NCBI GenBank assembly: GCA_964016885.1
Contig: OZ024741.1
Location: 98,580,001 to 98,644,000 of the forward strand
DNA length: 64,000 bases
Source: Eledone cirrhosa
Taxonomy: Eukaryota
Direction of reading: 5' to 3'
The translations under genes and the position numbers were made by a program. Positions 3,280 through 63,711 of the stretch are shown here, in pieces. The notes below the pieces were generated by a model, which saw only the letters and a list, made by a program, of their open reading frames with translations, was not told the origin of the DNA and searched no databases. The number at the start of each line of letters is the position of its first letter. Position 1 is the first letter of the stretch.

Positions 3280-3341
3280 TTTTATTATATATATTTCGGA
3301 GGTACTGTGCTGTTTTTTCAGTACGTCCTCATCAGATAAAA
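3280..3341 (-). ncRNA. Type I hammerhead ribozyme (family A1)
   Basis: Minus strand reads TTTTAT CTGATGA GGAcGTACTG-loop-CAGTACcTCC GAAA TATATA TA ATAAAA. Canonical core, stems I and II pair, palindromic stem III. Confidence 0.8.
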
Positions 3342-3958
3342 TACATGAATTGATGTATGACAAACGTCAACTGTCATGATGGTTCACTTCCAGTATTGGC
3401 AGTGATTTATTACAACAAATCTCAACATTTATATACCACAAATAATAACATGATAAACTTAAATATAATGAAGAAGAGGATATGGAGCGAGATATAAGTA
3501 TAAGGAGGGGGTGAGTATGAGAAAATGCAAGAAGAAATAAATAAACACATACATACATAAATATTTAAATGCGTAAATATACGTGTTAGGGAAGAAAAAG
3601 AGAGAGAGAGAGAGATAGAAGAGAAGAAAGAAGAGAGAAGAAAAAAGAAAAGATAGAAGGAGAGAGAGAGAGAGAGAGATAGAAGAGAGAAAAAGAAGGA
3701 AGGAAGAAAGAGATATGATGCGTTATTTTCAAATATTAAGTCAAATAGAAGCGAACAATTAAATACCATGAAATTTGTTTAATATCTTTTGTATTTGGTT
3801 ATGTTTAAGCTAATTATACTAATATATTATATCAAAATTAAACAATATAAACTGTAGAGTGCTTTTAATCTATTGTAAAACTATATTCATTGAGTTATCA
3901 ATGAACCATATTAATCTTTGGTTATATATATATATATATATATATATATATATATATA

Positions 3959-4540
3959 GGTCAAGATTAACTGAGACAAACATAGAGATACAATGTCTGT
4001 ACACTAATATATGTGTGTGAATTTTGTATATCTAATTATATATGCTATGTTTATGAATAACATTTTCAAAGCATTTTAGCTATGAATTTTGAAAGCTGAC
4101 GGCTAGCGCTATCTAGCGGATCCCGACAGAAGCACTAGAGCATAACTGTCAATGCGTTTCTGGCTTACGGCAATCATCAGGAGAGTGCTTCCTCCGCCCT
4201 GCTCTCAGCTTGAAATATAGGCAAAAATATATCATTTTTTTTCCGCCTATATATATGGGCTGATTAGCCTCATCTGCAAAATTCTATTTTCAGGCTGAGC
4301 CGGCCTGACAGCTCCACATACAAATGGGCATAATTAGCCTATTTACATAGGCGAAAAACTATATATCAAATTCCAGCAGAGAGCAGGGTGGGAGAAGCAC
4401 TTTCCTGATGACGGCCTTAAGCCAGAAACACTTTGTTATCCTCTACTGCTTCTGCTGGAATCCACTACATGGCACTAGCTGTCAGTTTACCAAATATTTA
4501 TTCGTAAACATACCTTATACCATTAGATATACAAATTCAT
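3959..4540. mobile_element. Old foldback element (imperfect ~500-bp palindrome) with a decayed HHR in each arm
   Basis: Arms pair (gtatatctaat/attagatatac, aagctgacggctag/ctagctgtcagttt, gagagtgctt/aagcactttc). CTGATGA..GAAA cores at 4146-4185 (-) and ~4400-4438 (+). (TA)n on both sides. Confidence 0.65.
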
Positions 4541-4869
4541 ATATATATATATACGTGTGTATGTGTATGTTTGTGAGTGCATATATATATCGACAGCTAG
4601 ATCTAGCTGTCGAAACGACCGGAGATCAGCCGTCGGGGTCCTGACTCTTTTCCTATTACCCACTCTGCTACCCTAAGTATGTATGTATGTATGTATATAT
4701 ATATATTTATACATGTGTATATATATATATATATATATATATATATATATATATATATATATATATATATATATATATATATATATATATATATATATAT
4801 ATATATATATATATATATATAATATACAATATATTAATAAATGGAAACTATATTTATAAAACCATAATT

Positions 4870-4931
4870 ATTTTATTATATATATTTCAAGGGCAACAAG
4901 GTAATTTTGGTGCGCTTTCATCAGATAAAAT
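4870..4931 (-). ncRNA. Type I hammerhead ribozyme (family A2, inverted copy)
   Basis: Reverse-complement copy of 4948-5010 with minor stem II differences. Confidence 0.7.
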
Positions 4932-4947
4932 ACAAAATATTATATAT

Positions 4948-60720: not shown

Positions 60721-60766
60721 AACTGCAAATTTAAACCAGGCAGATGCCTGGTTTAAATTTGCAGTT
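60721..60766. repeat. Perfect 22-bp hairpin palindrome
   Basis: aactgcaaatttaaaccaggca-ga-tgcctggtttaaatttgcagtt. Confidence 0.95.
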
Positions 60767-62123
60767 GTCAGAATAATAATTTGAGAATTAAAGTTTGCTT
60801 CTATAAGCCATTGTTTAGTCGATTTCTCCCATAATAAATCAAGAATTTGGACTGAAATTGCAGTGGAATGTATCTTCACGTGCTGATATATTTTGTGCAA
60901 CACTAATCCTTTTCTGTTAATTGCCCAGCCTTATTTTTTAAACTCGAAATGAGGCCAAATTTTAGAAAGGACCATACGTGCATTGTGATCACTAATAATA
61001 TCAGTTTATTACTGGTACTTTTTAATTTAATGTTTACTACTTAAAGCTGTGCTCTTGCATATCATTAGCCAATTCTTTTAAAAAAGAGAGAAAAAGAGAG
61101 AGCGATGTGGAGGATAAAATAAAAAGGAAATTTCCCCTGGTGGAATTAGAAATCAAAAAGACAAATTTACACTGCTATGAAATTAGTGACATGTGAAAAA
61201 TAAAAACACAGTTGGTTTGTGCAGATGTGTGTTAGAGAGATAAGTGAACTGTCATGTATTTGAAACAGTAAAACAGAAGAATATATAAAAGAGAGCAGTA
61301 GTAAAGGCAAAAGATATTCTACGGGGTAATTAGAACGTGACGTGTCCCGTCCCTAAACAATACGCCTTCTTCAAGCTGTTCTGCTAAATCTTTCATCTTT
61401 CACAGATGAAAAAATCATGGGAACATAAATTAACACCTAGACGCCACCCTAATCGAATAGTTGCCAACCCTCTCAGCAACAGTAAATGATTCTACGGAAT
61501 AGAAACACTATTGGTGTAACTAGTGACCTTATCTTACATGTTATACCAACACAGATGGTCCTAATGCGTTAACGAAATTAAGACAGTAAACTGTGACATC
61601 AGTTCCGCCTCTGTTTCACTTTATTTTGTCTTCGTCATCAGATAGCAACACCTCTGTCGCCATCAGATAACAGTGCCTCCTTCGCCATAAAATAGTCACA
61701 CCATCGTCACCGCCTTCAGGATATTCGGTTTCTCTTCACCAGTTGCTCGATGTCAACAATGTGATAACGTTACCACCCAACACCACTACCACACATAAAC
61801 GTTTTGTATGGCTTGTTTTAAATGTCTGTGCTCATGGCATTCACACACCCAACAAGATGTCGATAGAGCAGCTAGAAATAATAACCAAATCTTTCTCTTC
61901 ATAAAATCACAATCTGAAAAAAAAAATGTATTAGTTTCTGTAGTCCGGTGCGTAACAATGCATAAAATAGGTGGGATTGTAAGTTCTACAAGATATAATC
62001 ATAAGACTGCTAATGCTTGACTACCGTGGGTTAAACAACAGCAACAACTACCTTAATAATATTAGAAAAGGGCCAGTAATTTGTGAGGGGAAAGTAACTA
62101 AAACATTATTTCGTCGACAATGT

Positions 62124-62320
62124 AGGGCGGTGAATTAGCAGTACAGTATCGGTAGAGCGTCGGACACCATGCTTTGTGGCATTGAGTTACGACCCTTTAC
62201 GGTCTGAGTTCAAATCCCGCTGAGGTTAACTTTACCTTTCATTCATACAGGATCGATAAAATAAAGCACCAGTAACGTACTGGGGTCGATTTAATCGACT
62301 TTCCCCTCCCTACAAAGTTA
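62124..62320 (+). mobile_element. S1 SINE
   Basis: gggcggtgaattagcag start, B box and shared body. Confidence 0.85.
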
Positions 62321-62952
62321 TCGTCGGTGGTATTTGAACTCAGAAGGTAGAGGATCGTAACGAAATACTATAAAACATTTCGTCCGAGGTTCTGACGACT
62401 CTGTCTTTCTAATATTAGTAGCTGTCATTAGTTAGTCATTCTAATAAATATTTAATACTTTTTTGGTCGACTCCCTATTTCGCTTTACTTCACCAAATTC
62501 TTAATAAAATCGATGCATGGTACCTCCAGCATAGCTAAGCTTTGGGGTGAGTGTTAATTAGAATTTCTAACTTTAGTATCAAGCTACAAGTTTCTAGGGG
62601 AATATGTAAAATCGATAAATCAATACTATTATATGAACGTTGCAAGTTATTATTTTTTTAATCTAGTACGGAGAGATGAAAGGCAAAGTGAAAGCCGGTG
62701 GGAATTGAACTCTGAATTTATAGAGATGGAAGTAAATACAACGCACAAAGCGTTTCGATTGTCACTCTGCCATTTCTGTTACTCCGCCGCTTCAATCTAT
62801 AGATATAATGTTAGTAATGGACCTCAAATAGACAAAGCTTATGGACTACTTAACCCCTCTATTTCTTTCTTTCTGTACACATGCATACATACACAAACGC
62901 GCGCACACACACACACACACACACACACACACACACACACACATATATATAT

Positions 62953-63711
62953 AAATACAATATCAGAGAAAGCTTTTTAGCGATACTCCGGCCAAATTCC
63001 AACTCACTCAACAAACATTAGGAAATAAGTGATTATATTCCTAATTATGCGTTCGGGGTGTTAACTAAAAGTATTGCGTGGAAAATTGGCTGTATTATTT
63101 CATATGAGACATATCGAATATATCTCTTCCCAGACGGACGTCTCGTTTCATTATAGGATTCCTACAATTTGGGTGAAATTATACCAATTTATGCAGGAGC
63201 TTGTATACCATCAATAGATATATATTCAAGTGGGCTCCTATAATTCATCAGTGGGTGCCCCAATAATACTAATATTGATAATCTAACCAACATTTAGCGA
63301 TAATCATCATCAGTGCCTGAGGTATCTGTCAGGTTGCTAGTCCAGCAGTTCTAAAGAAATGCTCAAACTGATTCAAAAATGAGGAAGTAAATTACCGCGA
63401 AAATAAACAATACATGCGCATGACAATGAACTCTAAAAGAAATTCAGGCCACGTGCTAGAACTCAATTGGAAATTGAAAAAATATCTATGTGTGTACGAC
63501 ATTTGATGACACACACAGATATTTTCTCGGGCAAAATAACAGAATGAGATATAAGGAACAATCAATATTCATATATAAAAAAATAAACAAAGAAAGCCTA
63601 ACCTTATACCGGGAATTTCAAATTTGCTGCACAAGAGTAAATAAATAAATACAATATCGGAGAAAGCTTTTTAGCGATACTCCAGTCAAATTCCAACTCA
63701 CTCAACAAACA
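62953..63711 (-). mobile_element. HHR-bearing element (family E) with 65-bp terminal direct repeats (~694-bp period), TA-flanked
   Basis: aaatacaatatc.gagaaagctttttagcgatactcc...caacaaaca occurs at 62953 and 63647, with an internal HHR. Confidence 0.75.
63129..63255 (-). ncRNA. Type I hammerhead with a 77-nt insertion in stem II (family E)
   Basis: CCCA CTGATGA ATTATAGGA-[77 nt]-TCCTATAAT GAAA CGaGACGTCCG TC TGGG. Confidence 0.78.

Follow-up and report, generated by a model that had tools for sequence, protein, structure and literature searches.

A 64,000-nucleotide stretch of Eledone cirrhosa DNA (hereafter the window) holds, in its TA repeats, two kinds of element with predicted hammerhead ribozymes (HHRs). 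One kind comprises the 3' ends of coding Penelope-like elements (PLEs), namely families A1, A2 and B and an element at 47–50 kb; the other comprises ORF-less retrozymes, families C, D, E and F, which were likely copied in trans by PLE enzymes. We give this reading as a whole a probability of roughly 0.8. The class to which the second kind belongs already has a name, non-LTR retrozymes, and its dependence on PLEs has already been proposed in print. Two of the ORF-less families (C and D) show the tail and inversion that in vitro experiments attribute to the PLE reverse transcriptase (RT) (PMC11167929), a footprint that bears on the question of which enzyme moves animal retrozymes. The elements are as follows (strands given as plus or minus).

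3226–3922, minus: family A2, a long AT-rich 3' UTR plus pLTR; HHR core at 3335; TA runs on both sides
4023–4535: family F, an old foldback of a ~334–343-bp tandem unit; decayed HHR cores at 4180 (minus) and 4405 (plus)
4579–4676, plus: short, decayed 3' fragment of B
4822–5144: family A1, from a second coding Hydra-type PLE, whose 3' end is present twice in inverted orientation; HHR cores at 4924 (minus) and 4955 (plus)
15408–16209: family C (318-bp unit), two pieces on minus and one unit with a tail on plus; HHR intact at 15580 (minus), broken at 16011 (plus)
18456–18513, 32100–32191, 37064–37279 and 43027–43138: further fragments of B
20415–20599: short foldback of the B 3' end, between TA runs
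30667–32083: family D, ~1.7 units on minus and 1.5 units on plus with a ~56-bp tail (~430-bp unit); minimal HHRs at 30907 (minus) and 31770 (plus)
40710–41306: family B, from a third coding Hydra-type PLE, whose pLTR end is present twice in inverted orientation; HHR cores at 40813 (minus) and 41126 (plus)
41345–42275, plus: an ORF-less repeat with a 615-bp unit, present here as 1.5 units flanked by TA runs
47228–50231: Neptune/Nematis-type PLE (assigned by motifs), a 5'-truncated, 5'-inverted copy; minimal HHRs at 47433 (minus) and 50081 (plus)
48549–49700 (plus, 383 aa) and 47817–48572 (minus, 251 aa): ORF remnants of this PLE (GIY-YIG)
62954–63711, minus: family E, one 702-bp unit and ~58 bp of the preceding unit; no inverted arm

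Hammerhead folds and the TA target

A strict type I descriptor found eight folds in the window (3335 minus, 15580 minus and both cores each of A1, D and the 47–50 kb PLE), as against a mean of 0.03 and a maximum of one in 100 block-wise dinucleotide shuffles. The cores of B and that of E (near 63250, minus strand) fall outside the descriptor and are complete by eye. A type I core (YUGANRA with the 3–8 pair, GAAA and UH) and three helices, with helix I open, are thus present in A1, A2, B, the minus-strand copy of C, D, E and the PLE, the core being of the U3–A8 kind in B and in C. The folds described in an earlier note on this DNA are therefore real, and its palindromic helices III are as given there, with one extra base in B and one bulge in E. 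The broken site of C has lost the U of its cleavage triplet, a middle copy of D has GACA for GAAA, and the hammerhead of F is decayed in both arms. Minimum-energy folding gave the full three-helix hammerhead in none of 11 single-copy folds. No hammerhead family appeared among the Rfam matches listed (150 of 342), which were only microsatellite-driven miRNA matches and were set aside.

Covariation across genomic copies, the lack of which the note would have taken as a refutation, was found in part. In C, nine of 14 pairs, including the core 3–8 pair, change on both sides between subfamilies, in what amounts to about four subfamily events, and 97.4% of cells are paired, a value reached in none of 500 shuffles; one shuffle measure, that of pair types, did not exceed its control (446/500). 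Helix II of A likewise contains compensatory changes, and none was seen among the copies of D or the close copies of E. In D the HHR core and stems diverge by 0.016–0.017, as against 0.060 for the flanks. Judged from the sequences of its copies, the predicted hammerhead of C is kept by selection without any ORF.

Repeats within the window were found by blastn with (TA)n masked. The families are mutually dissimilar, as had been claimed, and comparisons between them gave only 19- and 23-nt matches at chance level. The note had, however, treated A1 and A2 as one family, whereas the copies at 4.9 kb and 3.3 kb belong to two, and had ended E short of 63711. Inverted layouts and TA flanks were borne out except that E has no inverted arm. 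Nor is the window the special community that had been supposed, since a random sample contained 32 such insertions in 400 kb, or about 80 per Mb.

Insertion into (TA)n, also proposed earlier, holds up well. In an unselected sample 55 of 58 insertions adjoined TA runs, as compared to 204 and 269 of 3000 random segments (7%–9%) and 10 of 70 copies of a control repeat; for C–F the count was 19 of 21, with the qualification that adjacency counts for C and D can be raised by TA-like runs of their own. (TA)n makes up roughly 5% of the genome. Expansion of (TA)n by the insertions, which the note had held possible, would give the same picture as a plain preference for long tracts, which offer more target.

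Coding Penelope-like elements

Families A1, A2 and B are 5'-truncated 3' ends of coding Hydra-type PLEs. The earlier note had classed every family as non-coding, while allowing that families extending 5' into their own PLE ORFs would be truncated PLE ends. This is what we found in other copies of all three, and the non-coding description therefore survives for C, D, E and F, which have no ORF, and fails for A1, A2 and B. Copies of A1 located through its far 3' UTR had upstream matches to Hydra-type RT or endonuclease in 21 of 30 cases. For A2, a same-strand Hydra-type endonuclease lay upstream in 12 of 30 genomic copies and an HHR downstream in 28 of 30. For B, whose unit is ~3.63 kb, one locus (L166) has an 801-aa stop-to-stop RT/GIY-YIG frame between two B copies. 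In the window, the predicted cut in A2 falls after position 3286, and the left arm of A1 stops at its first end while the right arm bears a tail of ~95 bp.

The label Hydra-type was assigned by motifs only: an RT followed by a C-terminal GIY-YIG domain with a CxCX5C linker, the linker and domain order being read in A1, A2 and B. In B, DKT stands where other PLEs of this kind have DKG, and the CCHH cysteines are missing; in A1 the motif was seen in a decayed form. The Hydra-type proteins had no Pfam match and no PDB match, their atlas neighbors carry HTH_animal and GIY-YIG, and the B protein aligned to the Neptune-type protein with E = 1e-7. All three families have an HHR in the pLTR and insert into (TA)n, and at least four Hydra-type coding families aimed at (TA)n exist in the genome, the fourth having been met as a control. 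These families, the fourth included, resemble the Hydra clade of C-terminal EN+ PLEs (Craig et al. 2021, 10.1101/2021.04.23.441226) in the GIY-YIG-type C-terminus after a CxCX5C linker, the HHR and the (TA)n target, and B also shares with that clade DKT and the missing CCHH cysteines. They differ from it in copy number, which for A1/A2/B-type elements appears to be of the order of 10^4–10^5, and in size, members of the clade being generally <3 kb and the B unit longer because its 3' UTR exceeds 1 kb. Truncated ends of this kind, whose 3' UTRs are of kilobase length and which draw no Pfam match, are easily taken for non-coding families.

The motifs of the truncated element at 47–50 kb place it in a young family of Neptune/Nematis type, 14 of whose 30 nearest copies have a 775-aa frame. 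Like Neptune/Nematis PLEs, the family has GxKF, DKG and a CX4CxxC linker (the CX2-5CxxC type); its GIY-YIG domain is of the CCHH type and contains CxxC and His residues, its HHR is minimal, and its copies show 5' inversion and a tail, which in the window copy is on the left arm only; the window copy differs in being truncated. The note had presented this element as a candidate autonomous partner of the non-coding families. The window copy is 5'-truncated, with a 383-aa remnant, and it competes with at least four Hydra-type coding families that have the same target and, like it, share no sequence with C–F. The 47–50 kb family is therefore one among several possible donors. More generally, young coding PLE families with uninterrupted frames reside in the same genome as the retrozymes.

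Retrozyme units and their insertion footprint

Families C, D, E and F are non-LTR retrozymes, that is, ORF-less head-to-tail hammerhead units, as the earlier note had in essence proposed. A head-to-tail period was seen for D at 412–437 bp in nine of 30 loci; for C at 317–320 bp in three of 30 loci (by one motif), with a three-unit array in the random sample as well; for E at 700–702 bp in three distinct arrays among 25 loci, the tandem junction being present in independent contigs too; and for F at 334–343 bp in three of 25 loci, two of which are a segmental duplicate. The longest ATG-initiated ORFs are 21–68 aa, and GC content is 34%–41%. All four families are dispersed in thousands of copies. 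Independent loci shared no upstream sequence other than the unit among those sampled (44 for C, 59 for D, 30 for E and 29 for F), in a sampling that is biased to full-length units and so might miss a rare coding parent.

In these respects C–F resemble the metazoan non-LTR retrozymes described by Cervera and de la Peña (2020, PMC7229834) and by Li, Clavereau and Pollet (2026, bioRxiv 10.64898/2026.07.22.740005), which are tandem units of low GC content and without ORFs, each unit bearing a single type I HHR, and which occur as many unrelated families per genome and as dispersed monomers and short arrays. The units described here (C, 318 bp; D, ~430 bp; E, 702 bp; F, ~340 bp) all have a GC content below 45%; D and E exceed the 170–400 nt of the 2020 paper and fit only the 51–972 bp given by the 2026 paper. 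In their hammerheads they depart from the known families: D and F have minimal, PLE-style HHRs, C has its U3–A8 core together with a 12-nt palindrome, and helix II of E is 95 nt long. Both papers report that PLEs co-occur with retrozymes and propose them as the mobilizing partner, the first calling PLEs a strong candidate mover and the second adding co-occurrence and pLTR homology. The 2026 paper reports such homology for 24 of 57 Xenopus families, whereas none was found for C–F. No sequencing run recorded as RNA was listed for E, a result that speaks neither for nor against its expression. Indeed, C–F compared with five coding pLTRs revealed no sequence similarity, and for this reason we name no donor.

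The evidence that connects C and D to PLEs is their insertion footprint, which is of the PLE type, in agreement with the layout proposed earlier. Each has two fixed 3' ends and 5' inversion. Terminated ends run into TA in 46 of 59 cases for D, 34 of 42 for C and 20 of 22 for E. In inverted pairs of the coding elements, one arm is tailed and the other untailed (A, 22/24; B, 24/24; PLE, 2/2), and the same holds for nine of ten pairs of D (p = 0.011) and nine of 12 pairs of C (p = 0.07, not significant by itself; 11/15 under a looser rule). Across 25 loci, E showed a single fixed end and lacked an inverted arm, and F has inversions in some loci. The tail, described as the segment that separates two start sites of the RT, is reported to be common to PLEs and confined to them (PMC11167929). 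Neither inverted arms with two fixed ends and a tail, as in C and D, nor targeting of (TA)n, as in all of C–F, was found in the retrozyme literature in its accessible text, and our literature search, within the same compass, brought up no tail-and-inversion evidence for retrozymes. Because C and D lie in TA repeats with the inverted, two-ended footprint of the coding elements, they were likely copied by PLE enzymes.

How the units may be copied

Could C–F also be the ends of coding PLEs with rare long copies, their short tandem units being occasional by-products? This proved true of A1, A2 and B, and A1 is a warning, since just two of its 55 first-sampled loci reached 1 kb and its ORF surfaced only on repeated searching. 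We nevertheless consider it improbable for C–F. End regions continue into their own short unit in 41 of 102 cases for D and 15 of 61 for C, and the 318-bp unit of C and its junction are kept in subfamilies only 72%–76% alike. An endonuclease lay upstream of C, D or F at seven loci, of which one was resolved, four read as nesting by their coordinates, and two (L294 and L307) remain. At L072, a copy of C stands directly behind a Hydra-type 3' UTR; that neighbor is a different family, C follows just one of its 30 copies, and we rejected the locus as a coding parent of C in favor of a chance junction. Movement of the units by machinery other than that of PLEs, whether LINEs or foldback and slippage at the DNA level in self-complementary (TA)n, is less probable still. 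Inverted duplications centered on TA runs do occur without any of these elements (at five of 663 TA runs and at none of 202 runs of other kinds), but slippage leaves unexplained the fixed element-specific 3' ends, the variable 5' truncation and the single tailed arm, and in the copies inspected the ends pass straight into TA, with no poly(A) between. Inverted duplication of the flanks around insertions is itself rare, with six of 90 pairs flagged, some of which are the element itself or another repeat.

Under copying in trans by PLE enzymes, PLE protein would bind the read-through RNA made from a tandem donor, and its GIY-YIG domain would nick both strands of (TA)n; reverse transcription would then begin at two fixed internal sites of the RNA, yielding the tail and the inverted arm. 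Because every element end falls ~20–270 nt 3' of the predicted cut and copies cross that cut, the template would have been either a multimer left uncleaved or a circle closed by re-ligation. The hammerhead itself is probably used as a dimer, cutting multimers into units. The predicted RT start sites are mapped to the base, which makes a direct test of priming in trans feasible.

The published retrozyme model would refine this scheme by having the units spread through rolling-circle reverse transcription of circular RNA monomers made by the hammerhead, a version that we regard as possible though not the favored one. Within single insertions of D, tandem units diverge by 3.5% (187/5405), much as inverted arms do (3.8%) and less than separate insertions (5.4%), as expected of circles; copies also cross the cut site and are partial tandems. 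In C, however, tandem units differ by 6.8% (51/756), more than inverted arms (4.7%) or separate insertions (6.1%), and in E they differ by 2.1% as against 2.4% between insertions; the divergence in C and E is therefore consistent with linear RNAs transcribed from tandem donors that were already old. Moreover, uncleaved RNA was the dominant substrate of a lizard PLE in vitro (PMC11167929).

A broader reading supposes a radiation of five or more unrelated retrozyme lineages, all long-lived and free of coding-PLE sequence, each with its own internal pair of RT start sites. These lineages would parasitize PLEs in the manner of SINEs, circles made by the hammerhead would be their templates, and, along with a large expansion of Hydra-type elements, they would help to build the (TA)n fraction of the genome. 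Having no coding-PLE sequence and yet start-site pairs of their own, such lineages would imply that PLE enzymes recognize the shape of the RNA. We hold this wider picture to be doubtful.

Finally, the 615-bp repeat adjoining B on its right was absent from the earlier note. Matches to it were found at 16 loci, and its relatives have a type I HHR of the U3–A8 kind with long helices II and III, the core being altered in the window copy.

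Hammerhead folds and the coding elements that carry them

A strict descriptor of type I hammerhead ribozymes (HHRs) found eight predicted folds in the window, whereas the same descriptor found a mean of 0.03 in 100 shuffled versions of it. The type I folds described in an earlier note are thus borne out, as are its inverted layouts (by masked self-alignment of the window) and its list of helix III palindromes. The HHRs of B and E, whose helices II are long, were recognized by eye. The elements are as follows.

3226..3922, minus strand: A2, 3' end of a coding Hydra-type Penelope-like element (PLE)
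4023..4535: F, ORF-less HHR-bearing unit (non-LTR retrozyme)
4822..5144: A1, 3' end of a coding Hydra-type PLE
15408..16209: C, non-LTR retrozyme
30667..32083: D, non-LTR retrozyme
40710..41306: B, 3' end of a coding Hydra-type PLE
47228..50231: PLE copy of Neptune/Nematis type
62954..63711, minus strand: E, non-LTR retrozyme

C has lost core or helix bases at 16011+, as have the D copy in the middle and the two arms of F, and Rfam gave no hammerhead among the matches listed (150 of 342). The complete three-way junction was the minimum-energy form in none of 11 single-copy folds, a modeling result that would be compatible with dimeric or protein-assisted ribozymes and lends no support to activity. 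When 717 kb of TA-rich loci (L001-L203) were scanned with a descriptor, 18 multi-locus HHR clusters emerged, 13 besides the largest five, with a palindromic helix III in nearly all.

The features singled out by the earlier note are real, but half were misassigned: C, D, E and F are indeed ORF-less, whereas A1, A2 and B, also taken for non-coding families, are PLE ends that elsewhere run 5' into an ORF of their own. For B, about 1.5 kb of upstream sequence is common to five of the 30 nearest copies, and three of the 30 continue downstream for 1.5 kb, reaching the next unit. At one locus (L166), two B copies lie 3.63 kb apart, and the stop-to-stop frame between them is 801 aa long. It includes DKT, an RT motif, a CxCX5C linker and a GIY-YIG-type domain that lacks the CxxC found in other PLEs, features of the Hydra clade as described by Craig et al. 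2021 (10.1101/2021.04.23.441226). The protein has no Pfam or PDB match; it aligns with the Neptune-type protein (E=1e-7), and its atlas neighbors carry HTH_animal and GIY-YIG families. For A1 (4.9 kb), 3' queries reached 1 kb in only 2/55 loci; its far 3' UTR as query gave 30 loci, 21 with a Hydra-type RT or endonuclease upstream and 15 of these with an A hammerhead downstream. A2 (3.3 kb) is a distinct family, with the endonuclease upstream in 12/30 loci. A fourth abundant Hydra-type family (L072 / L264-L293; 2755 first-look candidates) has an HHR helix II of about 82 nt, and more Hydra-type ORFs are nested close by (for example, L166 1071-2639).

The element at 47-50 kb, proposed earlier as an autonomous partner, is a 5'-truncated, 5'-inverted copy with a 383-aa remnant that includes GIY-YIG. 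Its family is coding (a 775-aa frame in 14/30 loci, with GxKF, DKG and a CX4CxxC linker), appears by sequence to be of Neptune or Nematis type, and is young, since 40 of 40 scored matches were at 100% identity. The genome has at least five coding families that are candidate donors, and this is one of them; the truncated copy in the window is not itself autonomous. About 108 bp of right flank and TA array (50805-50912) recur, inverted and identical, on the left (about 46190-46297), so the inverted repeat reaches ~0.7-1 kb past the PLE.

ORF-less tandem units

Units of C, D, E and F stand head to tail and lack an ORF, with periods of 317-320, 412-437, 700-702 and 334-343 bp, respectively, and longest ATG frames of 21-68 aa. 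End regions run on into a next unit in 41/102 cases for D and 15/61 for C, and an inverted arm and three C units lay together in one random 10-kb stretch. Contigs from two runs of a single study contain the E junction too; that study may include the assembly's source. No non-unit upstream sequence was common to independent loci among 44 C, 59 D, 30 E and 29 F loci, and C-F resembled none of the coding PLE terminal repeats (pLTRs) compared. An endonuclease does lie upstream of a unit in seven loci. L072 and L264 are a single site, at which C lies next to a different Hydra-type family; C follows in only 1/30 of that family's copies, so this is a chance junction rather than a coding parent of C. 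Four further loci are read from their coordinates as probable nesting, an account that leaves out L294 and L307.

HHR covariation across copies is present in C: 9 of 14 pairs have compensatory changes, including U3-A8 to C3-G8, in an alignment of 44 of 46 homologues (two partial ones omitted). None of 500 shuffles matched the paired fraction or covariation score; the pair-type count was not above the shuffle control, and the changes trace to about four events. C subfamilies are 72-76% alike, with unit length and junction unchanged. In D, whose HHR had no covariation, divergence in the core and stems is about a quarter of that in the flanks.

Insertion footprint and mobilization

In a 400-kb random sample of the assembly (3.0 Gb, 1796 contigs), 4.9% of the sequence consists of pure (TA) runs of at least five units. 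In 600 kb fetched unselected, a TA run lay within 60 nt of 55 of 58 insertions of eight families, in agreement with the claimed (TA)n adjacency; control values were 6.8% and 9.0% of random segments and 10/70 for a SINE-like repeat. Because TA-like ends of D and C can inflate this score, junctions were also classified: terminated ends joined (TA)n in 46/59 (D), 34/42 (C) and 20/22 (E). The abundant SINE-like repeat (~190 bp; in the window at 9270-9465, 26027-26635, 33802-34202, 62124-62413 and 63806-64000; 70 insertions in 600 kb) is not TA-targeted. The eight families had 32 insertions in the random 400 kb, so any 64 kb here would ordinarily have several and the window is no special "community". 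On the counts for C, D, E and F among them (4, 4, 2 and 1), each of these four families would have on the order of 10^4 copies, though the error is wide.

For A, B, C, D and the PLE alike, there are two fixed 3' ends, separated by 30-95 bp, and the arms of an inverted pair mostly have one of these ends each (A 22/24, B 24/24, PLE 2/2, D 9/10, C 9/12). E has a single fixed end and no inversions in 25 loci. Frangieh et al. (PMC11167929) showed for a PLE protein that it cleaves the two strands of AT-rich DNA and that its RT begins at two internal RNA sites, which define the tail between the two ends; HHR cleavage is dispensable for insertion, and the protein aids its own HHR. Mobilization in trans by a PLE protein would best account for the PLE-type footprint on C and D, which lack ORFs. 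The predicted cut lies upstream of all element ends and is spanned by the copies, which suggests a template of uncleaved or re-ligated RNA. Divergence between tandem units, inverted arms and separate insertions (D 3.5%, 3.8% and 5.4%; C 6.8%, 4.7% and 6.1%), or tandem units and separate insertions (E 2.1% versus 2.4%), favors a circular template for D, not for C or E.

The kinds of element are known. pLTRs carry minimal and U3-A8 HHRs with palindromic helix III, acting as dimers, and most such motifs are probably truncated PLEs (Cervera and de la Pena 2014, PMC4209133). Non-LTR retrozymes and their circles have been described, with PLEs as strong candidate mobilizers (Cervera and de la Pena 2020, PMC7229834; see also Goubert et al. 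2022, for whom retrozymes may depend on PLEs). Li et al. (2026, bioRxiv 10.64898/2026.07.22.740005) treat retrozymes as non-autonomous PLE derivatives, only 1/9 dimers being cleaved in vitro. Craig et al. describe the PLE tail, inversion and a Hydra clade with HHR and (TA)n. An Octopus vulgaris repeat annotation has 31 recently active PLE families, and its main text does not use "hammerhead" or "ribozyme" (PMC13282606). In the open-access literature, as distinct from subscription journals, Dfam and Repbase, we found no account of retrozymes with tails, inversions or a (TA)n target; what is added here is evidence, from the insertion footprint, for the use of PLE machinery by retrozymes.

Further repeats in the window

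Finally, we note other features.

41345-42275: ORF-less 615-bp repeat, 1.5 units, between TA runs; 16 loci match
58890-59479: ~515-bp unit with a 38-bp terminal repeat ending in (TA)n; 14 loci match
43168-43386, 24319-24374, 20182-20346: very common short foldback family, fixed 3' end, between TA runs; 42 loci
56643-57982: decayed transposase-like frames, Spin-doc zinc finger PF18658

The 615-bp repeat, relatives of which have a type I HHR (helix II 76-80 nt, helix III region 35 nt), is probably a fifth retrozyme family. The ~515-bp unit, partially tandem in L295, had no HHR by the pattern used. Longer copies of the foldback family occur in L212, L234, L316 and L330, and the transposase-like frames are probably what is left of a DNA transposon. 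At 18541-19384 and 51882-52081, unique-looking sequence is duplicated in inverted orientation around a TA run; in an unselected sample, such duplications centered on 5/663 TA runs versus 0/202 other dinucleotide runs.
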